A stretch of 4,710 bases of DNA from IMG/VR virus record IMGVR_UViG_2617270988_000012, positions 1 to 4,710 of that record; one strand, written 5' to 3'. This DNA comes from a virus (taxonomy: Duplodnaviria > Heunggongvirae > Uroviricota > Caudoviricetes). Within the stretch, counting starts at the first letter, position 1. Every line of letters starts with the position of its first letter. Positions 1 through 4,710 of the stretch are shown here, in pieces. Made by a program: the position numbers and the translations under genes. A model generated the notes under the pieces. The model searched no databases, was not told the origin of the DNA, and saw only the letters and a list, made by a program, of their open reading frames with translations.

Positions 1-345
1 CTTTATGGGATATCTGAAAGGGAAAAGCAGTCTGATGCTTTACGAGCAGTTTGGTGATTTGAAATTCAAGTACAGGAACAGGGAGTTCTGGTGCAGAGGG
101 TATTACGTCGATACGGTGGGTAAGAACACGGCGAAGATACAGGATTACATAAAGCACCAGCTTGAAGAGGATAAAATGGGAGAGCAGTTATCGATTCCCT
201 ATCCGGGCAGCCCGTTTACGGGCCGTAAGTAACGAAGTTGGATGCAAATGTCAGATCGTGTGCGCCTGTTAGGGCGCGGCTGGTAAGAGAGCCTTATAGG
301 CGCATTTGAAAAACCTCCGGCTATGCCGGAGGATATTTATTATTG
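1..345 (+). mobile_element. IS200-like insertion sequence, 3' portion (tnpA 3' end plus right-end region with subterminal hairpins); right boundary approximate
   Basis: tnpA fragment at 2-232 followed by about 100 nt noncoding with two hairpins (GCGCC-tgttag-GGCGC near 269-284; CCTCCGGC-tat-GCCGGAGG at 314-332). IS200/IS605 elements carry subterminal hairpins and IS200 has roughly 100 bp after tnpA, so the element probably ends near 335-345. Exact end not determinable without a reference. Confidence 0.6.
2..232 (+). CDS. tnpA: IS200/IS605-family transposase TnpA (Y1 HUH transposase), C-terminal fragment; 5' end lies upstream of the window
   Basis: Open frame enters from the window edge and stops at TAA 230-232. 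Translation (...FMGYLKGKSSLMLYEQFGDLKFKYRNREFWCRGYYVDTVGKNTAKIQDYIKHQLEEDKMGEQLSIPYPGSPFTGRK) matches my recollection of the C-terminus of enterobacterial IS200 TnpA, including the region carrying the catalytic Tyr (WCRGYYVD). Confidence 0.9.
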   Translation, partial: FMGYLKGKSSLMLYEQFGDLKFKYRNREFWCRGYYVDTVGKNTAKIQDYIKHQLEEDKMGEQLSIPYPGSPFTGRK

Positions 346-376
346 TTGTCAGCTTCCGGATAACGGGAGACGGGGT

Positions 377-592
377 ATGTACCAGATGGAAAAAATCACA
401 ACAGGTGTGTCATACACCACGTCAGCGGTGGGAACGGGCTACTGGTTCCTGCAGTTGCTGGACAGGGTTTCCCCGTCTCAGTGGGCGGCAATAGGCGTGC
501 TGGGAAGTCTGCTGTTTGGGCTGCTGACATATCTGACTAACCTGTATTTCAAAATCAGAGAGGACCGGCGTAAGGCCGCCCGGGGAGAGTGA
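377..592 (+). CDS. S: Class II holin (pinholin, phage 21 S21-like), 71 aa with dual-start motif (Met1/Met4 giving 71- and 68-aa products)
   Basis: SD GGGAGA at 365-370, ATG 377 and second in-frame ATG 386. Product [71 protein letters not shown] has two TMDs (a weakly hydrophobic Gly/Ser/Thr-rich TMD1 and a canonical TMD2) and a charged C-tail; near-colinear with recalled phage 21 S21 71/68. The upstream ATG at 323 lies inside the hairpin and has no SD. Confidence 0.9.
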
Positions 593-595
593 ATA

Positions 596-1153
596 ATGAA
601 CCATGAAGAAATGAATCAGCGCTTCAGTCGCCTGGAAAATGAAATTGCTGAACTGAATAAAAAACTGTCGACGCTGATGCCTTCTGAAGATGAAAAAAAA
701 CGCCGCGATGAGCAGTTTGCTGCGTTTGACGATTATTGTCGGAAAGTGATGAGCAAAAATCTCGCAGAGTGTTTCAGTATTCATAATGATAATTTCAGTG
801 AGCTGGAATGGGAGTGTAACCGGCCATCCTTTGTTGTATCCGGTGATGCCGGGAAAATAACCATCTCAGAAAATGGGAAAGTAACACCTCCATCGCACCA
901 GCACAGTGAGGAGCTCATTGAATTTGCCATTGATTACCTGAAGAACAATAAAAAGCAGGGGCTGATGAAGCGCGTTGGCCGTTGCATGGGATATCTTCAG
1001 GTAGCCGCTGAGATTGAAGCGCTGGCCAGTGGTGCTGATAAGGATGCAATTGTGCGGGAGGCTCTTCTTCGTGATTTTAATACTCCACCCTTTAAAAAAG
1101 TGCCGGCTTACTGGCTTCATCCGGGGCTGACTTATCTTAAAGTGCGTATTTAG
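596..1153 (+). CDS. Hypothetical 185-aa soluble protein (moron) inserted between holin and endolysin; function unknown
   Basis: ATG 596 is 3 nt after the holin stop, with SD GGAG 5-8 nt upstream (translational coupling). Long uninterrupted ORF with an acidic, coiled-coil-like N-terminus (NQRFSRLENEIAELNKKLSTL...), no TM segment and no signal peptide. Hand-counted GC about 42% versus about 60% in the adjacent endolysin. No family recognised by eye. Confidence 0.6.
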   Translation: MNHEEMNQRFSRLENEIAELNKKLSTLMPSEDEKKRRDEQFAAFDDYCRKVMSKNLAECFSIHNDNFSELEWECNRPSFVVSGDAGKITISENGKVTPPSHQHSEELIEFAIDYLKNNKKQGLMKRVGRCMGYLQVAAEIEALASGADKDAIVREALLRDFNTPPFKKVPAYWLHPGLTYLKVRI

Positions 1154-1189
1154 TGGGCCAGGGACAGCGGCTGAATATTTAATATATCC

Positions 1190-1723
1190 ATGAACACCAA
1201 AATCAAATACGGCCTGTCGGCTGCCGTTCTGGCGCTGATTGCCGCTGGTGCGTCTGCGCCTGACATTCTCGACCAGTTTCTGGATGAAAAGGAAGGTAAC
1301 CACACCACGGCATACCGTGATGGCGCGGGTATCTGGACCATCTGCCGCGGTGCCATCCTGGTGGATAGTAAACCTGTCGTCCCGGGCATGAAGTTGTCGA
1401 AGGAAAAATGCGACCAGGTTAACGCCATTGAACGTGATAAGGCGCTGGAGTGGGTGGAGCGCAATATTAAAGTACCGCTGACCGAACCCCAGAAAGCGGG
1501 GATCGCGTCATTCTGTCCGTACAACATTGGTCCCGGTAAGTGTTTCCCGTCGACGTTTTATAGACGAATTAATGCAGGTGATCGAAAAGGTGCCTGCGAA
1601 GCGATTCGCTGGTGGATTAAGGACGGTGGCAGAGACTGCCGTATTCGCTCAAACAACTGTTACGGTCAGGTATTCCGTCGTGACCAGGAGAGCGCGCTGG
1701 CGTGCTGGGGAATCGACAGATAA
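1190..1723 (+). CDS. R: SAR endolysin (signal-anchor-release lysozyme, T4-lysozyme-like glycoside hydrolase family 24; phage 21 R21 type)
   Basis: N-terminal uncharged Ala/Gly/Leu-rich SAR segment (YGLSAAVLALIAAGASAP) followed by the lysozyme catalytic triad spacing E-x8-D-x5-T (EGNHTTAYRDGAGIWT). Overall similarity to recalled R21/P1 Lyz-type lysozymes. No Cys in the SAR domain, so R21-like rather than P1 Lyz-like regulation. Confidence 0.9.
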   Translation: MNTKIKYGLSAAVLALIAAGASAPDILDQFLDEKEGNHTTAYRDGAGIWTICRGAILVDSKPVVPGMKLSKEKCDQVNAIERDKALEWVERNIKVPLTEPQKAGIASFCPYNIGPGKCFPSTFYRRINAGDRKGACEAIRWWIKDGGRDCRIRSNNCYGQVFRRDQESALACWGIDR

Positions 1724-1812
1724 GCAGAATATTTTGCTGAAAAATAAGGTTGGCCAACGCGGGCGGATAACACGAAGTCCTGCGAACTGGCGAAACCTAA
1801 GTGAATAAAAGT

Positions 1813-1854
1813 AAAAACCCCGTTTGTTGGCACCAAGCGGGGTTTTGTGTTTCT
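1813..1854 (+). terminator. Rho-independent terminator (potentially bidirectional) downstream of endolysin
   Basis: Imperfect GC-rich hairpin AACCCCG(1816-1822)...CGGGGTT(1838-1844) with inner TTGG/CCAA pairing, flanked by an A-run upstream (1813-1817) and a T-rich tract downstream (TTTTGTGTTTCT). Confidence 0.7.
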
Positions 1855-1879
1855 GACCTTGAGTAAGGCAAGGGAGAAC

Positions 1880-2062
1880 ATGGCGAAGTATAAACGAATT
1901 CTGTTGAGGTTGACCATGAAAAACGGCCTTGAACTGAAAGCGCCTGTAACTGATGACATCAGCAGAGCACTGGCTTTTGCCATTAAGTGGGTGGCGGTCG
2001 GTGTTGCTGTGTCCCCGATGCTGTATGGGCTGGCAAAACTGGTCATTGCGTTGAAATCGTGA
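1880..2062 (+). CDS. Hypothetical small membrane protein (60 aa; basic N-terminus, C-terminal TM helix)
   Basis: Strong SD AGGGAGA (1872-1878) just upstream of ATG 1880. Product [60 protein letters not shown] has one predicted C-terminal TM segment. Sits between endolysin and Rz. The upstream extension from 1847 is rejected because it has no SD and overlaps the terminator. Confidence 0.5.
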
Positions 2063-2076
2063 AGGGAGGATTAAGC

Positions 2077-2208
2077 ATGTCAGACAAACTCATAACGCTG
2101 GCGAAGATCCTCTGTGTAATTGTCGGCATTTCATTTTCACTAATGCTGGTTGCTCTTTTTCTTTCCATGGCCTGGATGATGTTGTCTTCGTCGGGGCTGC
2201 TGGGGTGA
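2077..2208 (+). CDS. Hypothetical small hydrophobic peptide (43 aa, single TM helix)
   Basis: SD GAAGGGAGGA (2061-2070) then ATG 2077. Product [43 protein letters not shown] is almost entirely one TM helix. Its stop TGA (2206-2208) overlaps the Rz GTG start (2205-2207), suggesting translational coupling into Rz. Confidence 0.45.
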
Positions 2209-2678
2209 ACATAAACCGAATGCTTTCCGCGTTTATCGTTATTCTGCTGGTGGCCTGTGGTGCGCTGTGGATGGCAACAGACCATTACCGTGATAACGCG
2301 ATTACCTACAAAGCGCAGCGCGATAACAAAGCCAGTGAACTGAAGCTGGCGAACGCAACCATTACTGATATGCAGGTGCGCCAGCGCGATGTTGCTGCGC
2401 TCGATGCAAAATACTCGAGGGAATTAGCCGATGCGAGAGCTGAAAATGAAACTCTTCGCGCTGACGTTGCCGCTGGTCGTAAGCGCCTGCGGATCAACGC
2501 CACCTGTCCAGGCTCCGTGCGTGAAGCCCCCACCACCTCCGGCGTGGATAATGCAACCGGCCCCCGACTGGCAGACACCGCTGAACGGGATTATTTCACC
2601 CTCAGAGAGCGGCTGATGACGATGCACAAGCAACTGGAAGGGGCACAGGAATATATCCGTACTCAGTGCCTGAAATAA
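2205..2678 (+). CDS. Rz: Rz i-spanin (inner-membrane spanin subunit), lambda Rz-like
   Basis: Product has an N-terminal TM segment then ...[76 protein letters not shown]...[33 protein letters not shown], nearly colinear with recalled lambda Rz. Start uncertain between GTG 2205 (coupled to the upstream ORF) and ATG 2220. Confidence 0.93.
2431..2616 (+). CDS. Rz1: Rz1 o-spanin (outer-membrane lipoprotein spanin subunit), embedded in the +1 frame of Rz
   Basis: Fully nested inside Rz in an alternate frame. Product [61 protein letters not shown] has a lipobox (LVVSAC) and a Pro-rich core almost identical to recalled lambda Rz1. Confidence 0.92.
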
Positions 2679-3028
2679 GTTTTGTTGATGCGCCGTATCG
2701 TCGCTGTATTCCCTCATTAACAGAGACCGCAGCCCGACAGGGAGACTCCTCTGCGCGAGTGTGCGGGGATAATCAAAAACGATACACACCGGGGTTTACC
2801 GTGTTAACGGAGCGCGGCGTTGTCCCCTCATAGTCGCCTGTCCGGTGCGATGGTGGAAGAAGCCGGATGTTTATCACTATTAATTGATGACACAGAAATG
2901 GATTCATTGAATTTCAGCACGTTTTTGTATTCGTGTTATTGAACATCTGTTTATTTTACTTTTAACATATTGATAATAAAAAGAGCTGTAAATCTTTAGA
3001 TGAGTCGATTTTGTCCGGGGAAGTTCAA

Positions 3029-3169
3029 ATGGATTTTATGCTGACGGTTTCTGGTGTGGTTATCCTGTCCATTGCTTATATTGCAGATAAATATGGCTGC
3101 CATTTGTTATCACGTATTGGCGCTTATTGTTCGTTGATGCTGATTTTCTCGTCGCTTTTTTTTGAGTAA
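3029..3169 (+). CDS. Putative 46-aa hydrophobic peptide within the AT-rich island (speculative)
   Basis: ATG 3029 preceded by GGGGA (3016-3020); product MDFMLTVSGVVILSIAYIADKYGCHLLSRIGAYCSLMLIFSSLFFE. Below the ORF-track size cutoff, sits in roughly 28% GC DNA, and has no conservation evidence, so it could be a chance ORF. Confidence 0.2.
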   Translation: MDFMLTVSGVVILSIAYIADKYGCHLLSRIGAYCSLMLIFSSLFFE

Positions 3170-3301
3170 GTTATATTAATTATAACAAATAATTTTCTGT
3201 GTTATTTTTTCAGGCTATCCCGTCAGAGGGGAAGCCTGTACTGCCGGGGAGCGAATGGAAAACTGATGTGTCCGGTAACTGCGTGTTCTGTGAACACCAT
3301 G

Positions 3302-3487
3302 TTACTTAATTATGTAATTCATACCCGAATTCTCTGTTGACAGCCTTCTTCTGCAGGCTTCAATAACCCACGCTGAAAAGTTTCCTGAACCTTTCAGATC
3401 AAGAGCGATGTTAATTTGTTCAATCATCTGGTTTGGAAATCGGATGTTGCGGGTTGTTGTTCTGCGGGTTCTGTTCTTTGATGACAT
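3302..3487 (-). CDS. Small cos-proximal protein, YlcI/YnfO-like (DUF3950-type) family of lambdoid phages
   Basis: Minus-strand ORF, ATG at 3487-3485 with GGGGA upstream. Product MSSKNRTRRTTTRNIRFPNQMIEQINIALDLKGSGNFSAWVIEACRRRL... matches my recollection of the small protein encoded at the same place (just left of cos, minus strand) in lambda and of E. coli DLP12 YlcI; the C-terminal 12 aa diverge. Confidence 0.7.
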   Translation of the reverse strand: MSSKNRTRRTTTRNIRFPNQMIEQINIALDLKGSGNFSAWVIEACRRRLSTENSGMNYIIK

Positions 3488-3687
3488 AATGTTTCCCCAT
3501 ATTCAGTGTTGCTGATTTGTATTATCTGAAGTTGCTTTTACGTTAATTTGACGCAGATCAATTAATACGATACCTGCGTCATAATTGATTATTTCTCGTG
3601 GTTTGATGGCGTACACACATGTTGTGATAAACCTTATATAGATGATAATCATTATCATTTCGTGGGTCCTTTCCGGCGATCCGACCG

Positions 3688-3711
3688 GTTACGGGGCGGC
3701 GACCTCGCGGG
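3688..3711. other. cosN (terminase nicking site); the 12-nt cohesive-end sequence GGGCGGCGACCT lies at 3694-3705
   Basis: Sequence ...GGTTACG/GGGCGGCGACCT/CGCGGGTTTTCGCTATTTATGAAAATTTTCCGG reproduces the lambda right-end/left-end junction; the 12-nt block is the known lambda cohesive end. Flanking 3640-3690 resembles the lambda cosQ region. Confidence 0.9.
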
Positions 3712-3742
3712 TTTTCGCTATTTATGAAAATTTTCCGGGAAC

Positions 3743-3841
3743 CATGTCCGGTTTCTCTTCAAGTTAACTATATGAAAAATATAAAAACAGGTCTTCTGTG
3801 AACCGGACATGCGCAAAAAATGGACATGTAAACCGGACATG
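3743..3841. promoter_or_regulatory. cosB-like terminase small-subunit binding region with three copies of an 11-bp motif (AACCGGACATG) in R3-I1-R2-R1-like arrangement
   Basis: Inverted copy CATGTCCGGTT at 3743-3753, an AT-rich spacer at 3760-3790 (possible IHF bend site, no clean consensus found), direct copies AACCGGACATG at 3801-3811 and 3831-3841, and a partial GGACATG at 3822-3828. Position between cosN and the Nu1-like gene matches lambda cosB architecture, but the motif differs from lambda R sites. Confidence 0.55.
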
Positions 3842-3888
3842 ACCGGTTTTGTTGTGATTGTGAGGTGAGAGTTTTTGCGAGGTGAGGA

Positions 3889-4398
3889 GTGGCTACGCAG
3901 ACTGAAGTTGCCAGGCATTTAAGTCTGACCGATCGCCAGCTTCGCAGATTGCAGAAATTGCCGGGTGCCCCGATATCGAATAAGCGAGGGCAACTGGATC
4001 TGGATGCCTGGCGCGATTTTTACATATCGTATCTGAGGAGAAGTAAAAACGATGTGCCTGATGGCGATAGCGAAGACGACTATGAGGAAAAATTGCTTAT
4101 TGCCAGATGGGAACTGACAGCAGAACAGGCTGTTACACAGCAGTTAAAAAATGAGGTGTCAAAAGGAAAACTGATTGACACCGGATTCTGTATTTTTGCC
4201 CTCAGTAAGCTGGCAATGGCGTTATCCAGTACGCTTGATTCCATCCCTTTATCCATGCAGCGACAGTTTCCTGATTTAACACCGCGCCATCTTGACCATC
4301 TGAAAACCCTTATTGCGAAGGGGGCAAATCAGTGTGCGCGGGCAGGGGATAAATTACCGGATTTACTCGATGAATATATCAGAGCAACAACTGAATAA
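3889..4398 (+). CDS. nu1: Terminase small subunit (lambda gpNu1-like)
   Basis: GTG start 3889 with SD GAGG at 3879-3882; the frame is closed by TGA at 3883-3885, so no longer start is possible. C-terminal two-thirds (...TGFCIFALSKLAMALSSTLDSIPLSMQRQFPDLTPRHLDHLKTLIAKGANQ...LPDLLDEYIRATTE) align with recalled lambda Nu1; the N-terminal HTH region (ATQTEVARHLSLTDRQLRRLQ) is divergent. Confidence 0.92.
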   Translation: MATQTEVARHLSLTDRQLRRLQKLPGAPISNKRGQLDLDAWRDFYISYLRRSKNDVPDGDSEDDYEEKLLIARWELTAEQAVTQQLKNEVSKGKLIDTGFCIFALSKLAMALSSTLDSIPLSMQRQFPDLTPRHLDHLKTLIAKGANQCARAGDKLPDLLDEYIRATTE

Positions 4399-4399
4399 T

Positions 4400-4710
4400 A
4401 TGATGAGTGCTGTCACAACAGCATTACAGCCCCTGATAAGGGCATTGCCGGTGACGCCAGTTGAATGGGCTGATCAAAATTATTATCTGCCGAAAGAATC
4501 TTCATATGGTGAGGGAGAATGGAAAACGCTGCCATTCCAGATCGCCATTATGAACTGTATGGGTAACGACCAGGTTCGCACGGTTAACCTGATTAAATCT
4601 GCCCGTGTTGGCTATACAAAGATGTTGCTGGGGGTGGTCGGGTATTTTATTGAGCATAAATCCCGAAACAGTCTGCTTTTTCAGCCCACGGATTCTGCCG
4701 CTGAAGATTT
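4400..4710 (+). CDS. A: Terminase large subunit (lambda gpA-like), N-terminal fragment; continues beyond window end
   Basis: ATG 4400 is 1 nt after the Nu1 stop (TAAtATGATG). Product ...PVEWADQNYYLPKESSYGEGEWKTLPFQIAIMNCMGNDQVRTVNLIKSARVGYTKMLLGVVGYFIEHK... is close to the recalled lambda gpA N-terminal region; open to the window end. Confidence 0.93.
   Translation, partial: MMSAVTTALQPLIRALPVTPVEWADQNYYLPKESSYGEGEWKTLPFQIAIMNCMGNDQVRTVNLIKSARVGYTKMLLGVVGYFIEHKSRNSLLFQPTDSAAED

Follow-up and report, generated by a model that had tools for sequence, protein, structure and literature searches.

What are two very short genes doing between the endolysin gene and the spanin genes of a phage lysis cassette? 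The question is raised by a stretch of 4,710 nucleotides (nt) from a tailed phage of the Caudoviricetes (IMG/VR record IMGVR_UViG_2617270988_000012, positions 1 to 4,710; hereafter the window), which is the late region of a lambdoid Escherichia coli prophage. The endolysin gene R (1190-1723, plus strand) encodes a lysozyme-type protein of 177 amino acids (aa) with an N-terminal hydrophobic anchor (Pfam Phage_lysozyme, E=5.5e-24; phrog_7 endolysin), and the i-spanin gene Rz (plus strand; from a GTG at 2205 or an ATG at 2220 to 2678) is recognized by Pfam Phage_lysis (E=6e-50). Between these left and right borders of what we call the slot lie a terminator-like hairpin and two short open reading frames (ORFs), denoted ORF1 and ORF2, of 60 and 43 aa. 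A first-pass annotation, made from the sequence alone, had interpreted this arrangement as a dedicated two-peptide membrane module with a possible function in lysis. The analysis described here indicates that ORF1 and ORF2 are widespread micro-protein genes that are best seen as shuffled late-operon cargo, and not as a defined lysis module.

The R-Rz junction as an insertion hot spot

As had been noted for phage λ, the slot does not exist in every lambdoid phage: R and Rz overlap directly, with nothing in between, in λ as well as in DLP12 and Qin, two prophages of strain K-12. The inserted genes differ from their surroundings in base composition, with a G+C content of 0.49 for ORF1 and 0.47 for ORF2 versus 0.54 for R and 0.55 for Rz, the holin gene, R and Rz together spanning 0.54-0.55. 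To describe related slots, we use provisional unit names: T denotes the hairpin, ORF1' a 38-40-aa form that equals residues 23-60 of ORF1, pepA a peptide of the type ..WKFLLVWxIPFLW..AIKG, and pepD the peptide MSAELIRAMAFAIRIVAIAVLVWAIRWW.

The architecture of the window, T-ORF1-ORF2-Rz, was the commonest among the loci collected. Other loci were organized as T-ORF1-pepD-Rz, as T-ORF1-ORF2-ORF1'-pepD-Rz or as T-pepA-ORF2-ORF1'-pepD-Rz, and phage GER2 carries a chimera of ORF1 and pepD. Larger genes enter the same place. A KilAC antirepressor-like gene precedes pepA-ORF2-ORF1'-pepD-Rz in one slot type, and in the Shiga toxin (Stx) phages examined, including Sakai Sp5, BP-4795, Min27 and P13374, a P22_AR_N antirepressor gene is followed by ORF2'-Rz. 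In a further locus (L063, IMG/VR contig 2617271340_000015), T-ORF1-ORF2 is separated from Rz by the gene for an N6/N4 DNA methylase of 311 aa. This methylase gene joins Rz through the same GGTGGTGATATG junction that pepD uses elsewhere, which suggests a recombination hot spot at the start of Rz. Taken together, these architectures demonstrate that the R-Rz junction is a hot spot at which at least four families of 28-60-aa micro-peptides are shuffled, or at which antirepressor or methylase cargo is carried.

They also speak against the dedicated pair that had been proposed, because ORF1 and ORF2 are found apart and recombined: ORF2 stands between an antirepressor gene and Rz in the Stx phages, ORF1 occurs with pepD in place of ORF2, and ORF2 occurs behind pepA and in front of ORF1' and pepD. 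ORF2 was located between the endolysin gene and Rz at every locus for which both flanks were readable (one further locus ended at a contig edge after ORF2), and it usually adjoins Rz directly. A tie between ORF2 and the pinholin/signal-arrest-release (SAR) endolysin type of cassette was considered and set aside, as it is not separable from simple linkage.

Coding capacity and conservation of ORF1 and ORF2

ORF1 extends on the plus strand from an ATG at 1880 to a TGA at 2060-2062 and encodes a basic N-terminal helix, an MKNGLE..AP turn and a long hydrophobic helix; ORF2, on the same strand, extends from an ATG at 2077 to a TGA at 2206-2208 and encodes a single, strongly hydrophobic helix. Kyte-Doolittle analysis with a 19-residue window yielded a hydropathy maximum of 1.88 for ORF1 (residues 30-58), which is moderately transmembrane, and of 2.89 for ORF2, which is strongly transmembrane. 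In an AlphaFold2 model of ORF1 (mean predicted local distance difference test score, pLDDT, of 74), a basic helix formed by residues 2-16 is followed by a loop and by a 37-residue helix comprising residues 23-59. Hydropathy and, for ORF1, the model therefore agree with the one transmembrane helix per product that had been predicted at first, and the two products are hydrophobic single-helix peptides by these predictions. Their C-termini, ...IALKS in ORF1 and ...SSSGLLG in ORF2, are without a charged tail.

The Shine-Dalgarno (SD) sequence of ORF2 (GGGAGG, 2064-2069, with a 7-nt spacer) is excellent, as the first-pass annotation had stated for both ORFs. That of ORF1 (AAGGGAG, 1870-1876) was graded good but not excellent; its distance to the ATG is 3 nt if counted from the GGAG core and 6 nt if counted from AAGG, and its first four bases are located inside a small hairpin. 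ORF1 contains, in addition, a candidate internal start on the plus strand (1906-1918), in which GAGG and a 6-nt spacer precede an ATG at 1916 and which would give a 48-aa form. Many gene callers start ORF1 homologues at this internal ATG (48-aa entries). The spacing of GAGG, 6 nt and ATG is retained in divergent relatives, although the overlapping codons differ (LRLT versus VEAN), and its retention despite different residues suggests that ORF1 may yield two products, of 60 and 48 aa.

An ORF of such a length is nothing unusual by itself; the window contains 48 of at least 30 aa. To assess selection on the two frames, Nei-Gojobori estimates of the ratio of non-synonymous to synonymous substitution rates (dN/dS) were obtained over all distinct alleles collected. 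For ORF1, dN/dS was 0.14 in frame versus 0.94 and 1.56 in the shifted frames, and the N-terminal 22 codons (0.14) resembled the helix part. For ORF2, the corresponding values were 0.42 versus 0.75 and 1.40, with both halves being similar, which is consistent with weaker selection than on ORF1. Both products matched PHROG families of unknown function over their entire length: phrog_1115 for ORF1 (residues 1-60, E=2.6e-42) and phrog_4906 for ORF2 (residues 1-43, E=2.1e-23). Because the purifying selection is frame-specific and the PHROG matches are strong, the two ORFs stand out beyond chance. Collectively, these comparisons demonstrate, at the level of sequence, that ORF1 and ORF2 are real genes whose reading frames are under purifying selection.

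Both genes are listed in RefSeq as hypothetical proteins (WP_001151823.1 for ORF1 and WP_001280932.1 for ORF2), and the ORF2 homologue of Sakai is ECs_5707. In a tblastn search, ORF2 was recovered at full length, with 65-100% identity, from 276 phage records; most of these are of Stx-converting phages, and many leave ORF2 unannotated. The length of 43 aa is kept in all 276 of them, down to 65% identity, and the majority of the Stx phages sampled carry ORF2. The same type of search with ORF1 against 50,697 phage records gave matches only in 14 Escherichia phages, among which HK97 is not listed, and a profile search of genome contigs with the ORF1 alignment gave no confirmed relative. At the DNA level, the stretch from 1724 to 2230 was matched in 2117 of 5426 complete E. 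coli genomes (~39%), in 990 of them at ≥80% coverage. Two scans of viral contigs returned relatives that were all 95-100% identical; the diverse relatives were drawn from phage records, from a search for contigs encoding homologues and from a representative search. Literature searches on the RefSeq accessions, ECs_5707, the R-Rz interval and lysis-cassette topics found no mention of ORF1 or ORF2, and two papers on Stx-phage genomics do not discuss them (PMC8136144, PMC10462455).

Of 80 loci selected by their ORF2, 78 have an intact ORF1, and of 80 selected by their ORF1, 77 were scored as having a full-length ORF2. The latter count includes frameshifted alleles, which a length test passes as intact: in five sampled loci (L086, L085, L076, L064 and L066) the C-terminal half of ORF2 is hydrophilic while the product is still 43 aa long, so that canonical ORF2 is present in at most 72 of the 80.

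Distribution of the ORF1 family outside the slot

A Salmonella homologue of ORF1 with 77% identity is located just 5' of Rz in three different cassettes. One of these combines a λ S-type holin with a GH19-type endolysin, and P21-type ones were also seen; ORF1 is thus not tied to the pinholin/SAR-endolysin system. More distant relatives from Salmonella and metagenomes keep the KY.R and MKNGLE..AP motifs and the helix core at 40-50% identity. Further sites of ORF1-family genes are found after tail-fibre genes, after an SASA/DUF6645 esterase gene and after the major capsid gene, and one of the tail-fibre-adjacent genes has terminators on both sides. Outside the slot, these genes are often followed by other one-helix micro-peptide genes, including pepA-like ones whose products end in RWW. 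By their genomic positions among the loci examined, the ORF1 family behaves as a floating cassette and ORF2 as a gene confined to the R-Rz slot.

In three metagenomic phage contigs, ORF1-family genes are part of tandem arrays of 30-60-aa one-helix peptides (L179, 3001-3903; L180, 325-737; L181, 547-827). These arrays lie outside any lysis cassette; several of their peptides end in RWW, and several have a hairpin leader of their own.

The post-endolysin leader and its hairpins

The stop codon of the endolysin gene is directly followed by a non-coding leader of ~90 nt (1724-1813, plus strand) with an invariant GATAACAC core. This leader is alignable across all slot types, including those of the Stx phages and of Salmonella prophages with a GH19-type endolysin, and it shows a few compensatory pairs. 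The leader may represent an RNA element of the 3' untranslated region.

Next to the leader lies the hairpin at 1814-1846, which is GC-rich, is preceded by an A-run and has a U-rich tail reaching to ~1859. In a terminator scan it was resolved as AAAACCCCGTTTG-TTGGCAC-CAAGCGGGGTTTT, with a stem of 13 pairs that closes a 7-nt loop and is followed by the tail GTGTTTCTGA; UUUUGUGUUUCUG is found directly 3' of it. Folding yielded -18.9 kcal/mol (z = -3.2), a value not reached by any of 200 shuffles, and the strong hairpin reported between R and Rz is thereby corroborated. Owing to the upstream A-run, the reverse strand reads as the hairpin plus TTTTTACTTTTATT, so that the element is by sequence bidirectional, resembling an intrinsic terminator on both strands. 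Variation among ~159 close loci is mostly in the loop, with a few stem-breaking alleles, and the Salmonella relatives have the same hairpin structure with different stem sequences.

Every slot type, also those without ORF1 or ORF2, has a hairpin and a U-rich tail behind this leader; antirepressor-type slots carry a different hairpin (GGCACC..GGTGCC) but an unchanged U-rich tail. The two peptides therefore have no exclusive claim to the terminator, and its assignment to a peptide module in the first-pass annotation is not supported. A search of Rfam at E<=1 gave nothing credible over the hairpin or the leader; a rimP leader candidate was rejected with a score of 26 bits against a gathering score of 47.

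The small hairpin that covers the beginning of the ORF1 SD sequence (1857-1873, plus strand) was found by folding and consists of a 5-bp stem, CCTTG-7 nt-CAAGG. Its stem recurs, with differing loops, before related small ORFs of other phages. In the leaders of ORF1-family genes and of neighbouring small ORFs, a GC hairpin flanked by A- and U-runs was present 30-60 nt 5' of the start in 13 of the 13 examined; in nine of them another small hairpin coincides with the SD sequence or lies close to it.

The junction with Rz

The GTGA described at the end of ORF2 is present at 2205-2208, where the stop codon of ORF2 overlaps the candidate GTG start of Rz. In RefSeq, the start of the homologous Rz is placed at the equivalent of the ATG at 2220. 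Reading from the GTG gives MNINRML..., which is parallel to the MNRVL... of the other class of Rz 5' ends and adds an N-terminal arginine. Whatever the architecture, no more than 12 nt separate the stop codon of the last slot gene from the Rz start, and no more than 8 nt if Rz of the window class begins at the GTG. This spacing makes translational coupling into Rz plausible.

Expression and interpretation of the slot

A scan with a simple sigma-70 consensus predicted no promoter between the hairpin and ORF1, which are separated by 33 nt (hairpin to ORF1 ATG), or elsewhere on the plus strand near the slot; the sole plus-strand promoter-like site of the window is located far away, at 3622-3649. 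The absence of a predicted promoter, together with a canonical terminator directly upstream, makes it probable that the lysogen does not express the peptides. Terminator-resistant late transcription, as the first-pass annotation had suggested, offers the simplest reading of this arrangement. The peptides would be made only from Q-modified, terminator-resistant late transcripts; each would be translated from its own SD sequence, with translation of ORF2 running into the Rz start, and late in infection both would probably enter the cytoplasmic membrane in an N-in orientation. On balance we favour, with guarded confidence, the interpretation that the slot is a late-operon insertion hot spot holding two independent add-on cassettes ("morons"), each of which encodes a single-pass inner-membrane micro-protein.

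A classical moron has a promoter upstream and a terminator downstream of its gene. Morons of lambdoid phages were reportedly described by Juhala et al. in 2000, with bor and lom of λ and gp15 of HK97 as examples. HK97 gp15 is a small membrane protein that blocks the DNA entry of other phages. Like lambdoid morons, the slot genes are inserted between late genes that abut in relatives, have a base composition unlike that of their neighbours, are associated with an intrinsic terminator and show a mosaic distribution, and their products are membrane peptides, as those of morons often are. Unlike those of morons, the products are 28-60-aa micro-peptides encoded in variable tandem arrays, and their expression is probably late and not lysogenic. 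The slot also resembles the PeSL (promoter plus stem-loop) cassettes that, according to a report attributed to Arbiol et al. in 2010, shuffle small ORFs in T4-type phages: small ORFs of many kinds are preceded by a conserved hairpin leader, and the order and location of the units vary. The present units differ from PeSL in belonging to another phage group and in containing no promoter; that the hairpin leader takes part in recombination is conjecture. The prophage small RNAs AgvB/AsxR and the Pas small RNAs are encoded at other places, either 3' of PR' cargo or 5' of the holin gene.

Several points weigh against the moron interpretation. The slot genes have no detected promoter, their terminator is located 5' and not 3', and ORF2 runs straight into Rz; some relatives of the slot genes have hairpins on both sides. 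The simple sigma-70 consensus used for the promoter scan can miss real, weak or atypical promoters. The loci were obtained by similarity searches, closest relatives first, so that the census of architectures is not unbiased. Decay occurs, as seen in the five loci with a frameshifted ORF2 and in one (L007) in which ORF1' is frameshifted and pepD truncated. Finally, ORF2 has an only moderate dN/dS, and its tight linkage to Rz, which is highly conserved, is a confounder when its conservation is assessed.

Possible roles of the peptides

If the slot holds such late cassettes, two kinds of role come into view. The peptides might tune a late envelope event, such as the timing or efficiency of the pinholin, the SAR-endolysin or the spanin; we put this forward tentatively, and it fits ORF2 better than ORF1. 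A late membrane function apart from lysis, for example blocking incoming phage DNA or membrane-based host defence, is a somewhat more doubtful proposal. A lysis-related role is possible, for ORF2 more than for ORF1, as ORF2 was not encountered outside the Rz slot. It can no longer be argued from location, as the first-pass annotation had done: the slot also accommodates antirepressor and methylase genes, and relatives of ORF1 are situated after capsid, tail-fibre and esterase genes, which means that position alone is no evidence for a function in lysis.

The stronger version, in which ORF1 and ORF2 form a dedicated antiholin-like or spanin-accessory pair that times the pinholin, the SAR-endolysin and Rz/Rz1, appears unlikely to us. 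Small membrane regulators of lysis are well documented, as exemplified by λ S107/S105, phage 21 S71/S68, T4 RI, P1 LydB and the Mu releasin gp25 (PMC9239132, PMC9025707). ORF1 and ORF2 resemble these holin and antiholin regulators in being small membrane proteins encoded inside the lysis cassette, between a SAR-type endolysin gene and Rz, and the candidate dual start of ORF1 is a feature of holin/antiholin pairs. In addition, ORF2 was found in the R-Rz slot only, its end lying at the Rz start or up to 12 nt from it in all classes examined, and all E. coli carriers examined have P21-type holins. The two genes nevertheless occur each without the other, the close Salmonella relative of ORF1 is also found in the cassette with a λ S-type holin and a GH19-type endolysin, other ORF1-family genes lie far from any lysis gene, and the slot admits antirepressor and DNA methylase genes. 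Moreover, the two starts of ORF1 are 12 codons apart, the peptides share no sequence similarity with the known regulators and have no charged C-terminal domain, and searches of Pfam and NCBIfam with both ORFs identified no holin, antiholin or other significant family. A peptide family candidate, DUF3930 (E=0.08), was below threshold and was rejected.

The moron-like features might also be explained by conversion or exclusion genes that are expressed in the lysogen from a promoter missed by the scan and that, for instance, block DNA entry as HK97 gp15 does. Insertion between genes that abut elsewhere, the lower G+C content and the associated terminator fit this explanation, and so do the ORF1-family genes after tail-fibre genes, which is a classic moron position, one of them being flanked by terminators on both sides. 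We consider it distinctly unlikely, because no promoter is predicted in the short interval of only ~33 nt between terminator and start codon and because the terminator of the window lies 5' of the gene. In addition, none of ORF1, ORF2, pepA, pepD and the 185-aa ORF between the holin and endolysin genes matched a PADLOC defence profile, and HK97 is not listed among the 14 Escherichia phages with a match to ORF1 in the 50,697 records searched.

A toxin-like function has also been weighed, in which ORF1 would be a membrane-depolarising toxin blocked by a cis-antisense RNA of ~75 nt that runs from the 5' end of ORF1 to the bidirectional hairpin. ORF1 and ORF2 share with type I toxins (Hok, Ldr, TisB, Ibs, ShoB) the hydrophobic single helix and a size of up to about 60 aa, which is the length of ORF1, and the SD sequence of ORF1 is partly occluded by the small hairpin. 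An antisense RNA ending at the terminator is conceivable at ORF1, since a weak promoter-like site on the minus strand (TGGTCA-18-TATACT, 1887-1916) points from 1916 to 1887 towards the hairpin, which is terminator-like on that strand; a -10-like TATACT, TATAAT or TACAAT lies within the conserved K-Y codons of most relatives, and short convergent small RNAs have been described for other moron sites in lambdoid prophages (PMC4104026). The site matches the consensus at only 9 of 12 positions, however, at which level 6.5 sites are expected in the window by chance, and its -10-like element may just reflect the conserved Lys-Tyr codons. An equivalent minus-strand promoter near the hairpin was not reported in two other slot types. 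Furthermore, both ORFs are part of a phage late operon and have no promoter of their own, the SD sequence of ORF1 is an ordinary one, and neither a peptide family nor Rfam gave a match. We regard the toxin explanation as very improbable.

At the opposite extreme, the ORFs could be functionless passengers whose frames persist by linkage to R and Rz and by recent spread, and not by selection on the peptides. Frameshifted alleles, the dN/dS of only 0.42 for ORF2 and the very close relationship of most sampled loci are consistent with such a scenario. It is, in our judgement, the least probable of all, given that the deficit of non-synonymous changes is frame-specific for both ORFs, that ORF2 remains 43 aa long throughout the 276 phage records and that the ORF1 motifs persist at 40-50% identity in unrelated genomic positions.

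Beyond the preferred interpretation of two independent late cassettes, the recurrent combination of hairpins and small genes might define a class of mobile micro-peptide cassettes. Each would consist of a bidirectional terminator hairpin, a mini-hairpin occluding the SD sequence and a gene for a single helix of 28-64 aa; the cassettes would shuffle between lambdoid late-operon junctions into variable arrays, and their peptides would act together as a tunable late switch at the inner membrane, for example in pinholin triggering or depolarisation. This is a speculative and, as it stands, improbable extension. If true, it would have possible consequences for lysis by Stx phages and for the release of Shiga toxin.

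The peptides are without a name or a Pfam family, despite the 276 phage records that contain ORF2 and the ~39% of complete E. coli genomes that contain some slot DNA. Lysis governs toxin release in Stx phages, and a late peptide that altered lysis timing or membrane integrity would therefore matter medically as well as for the holin-endolysin-spanin model. If the genes prove to be ordinary passengers, they still illustrate that a location in the lysis cassette is no evidence of a lysis function. As a compact system, the R-Rz hot spot lends itself to the study of what phage micro-proteins do. Its newest aspect is the combination of variable micro-peptide arrays with conserved hairpin leaders. 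A plaque-forming experimental system is provided by phages PhiR5_2 and PhiR12_1, _2 and _5, in which the slot is present with ~96.5% identity and which can be propagated on K-12 or E. coli C.

Neighbouring genes in the window

The window begins with the 3' end of an IS200-type transposase gene (5-232, Y1_Tnp match). A perfect 8-bp GC hairpin, terminator-like on both strands, follows at 314-332, and next comes the gene for a P21-type holin (377-592; Phage_holin_2_1, E=9e-33). The 185-aa ORF between holin and endolysin (596-1153) matches phrog_1085 and is without a Pfam family. It represents a second cargo slot of the same cassette, and its equivalent place is taken by YdfR in Qin and by ORF47 in BP-4795.

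On the other side of the R-Rz slot, the gene for the o-spanin lipoprotein Rz1 (2431-2616, plus strand; Pfam Rz1, E=1.8e-21) is embedded in Rz. An AT-rich gap of 1.2 kb (2679-3888, G+C 0.42) separates Rz from the terminase genes; it holds a further hydrophobic ORF of 52 aa without a family match (3011-3169) and a DUF3950/YlcI-YnfO gene on the minus strand (3302-3487). The gene for the terminase subunit Nu1 (3889-4398) is followed by the start of the large terminase gene.

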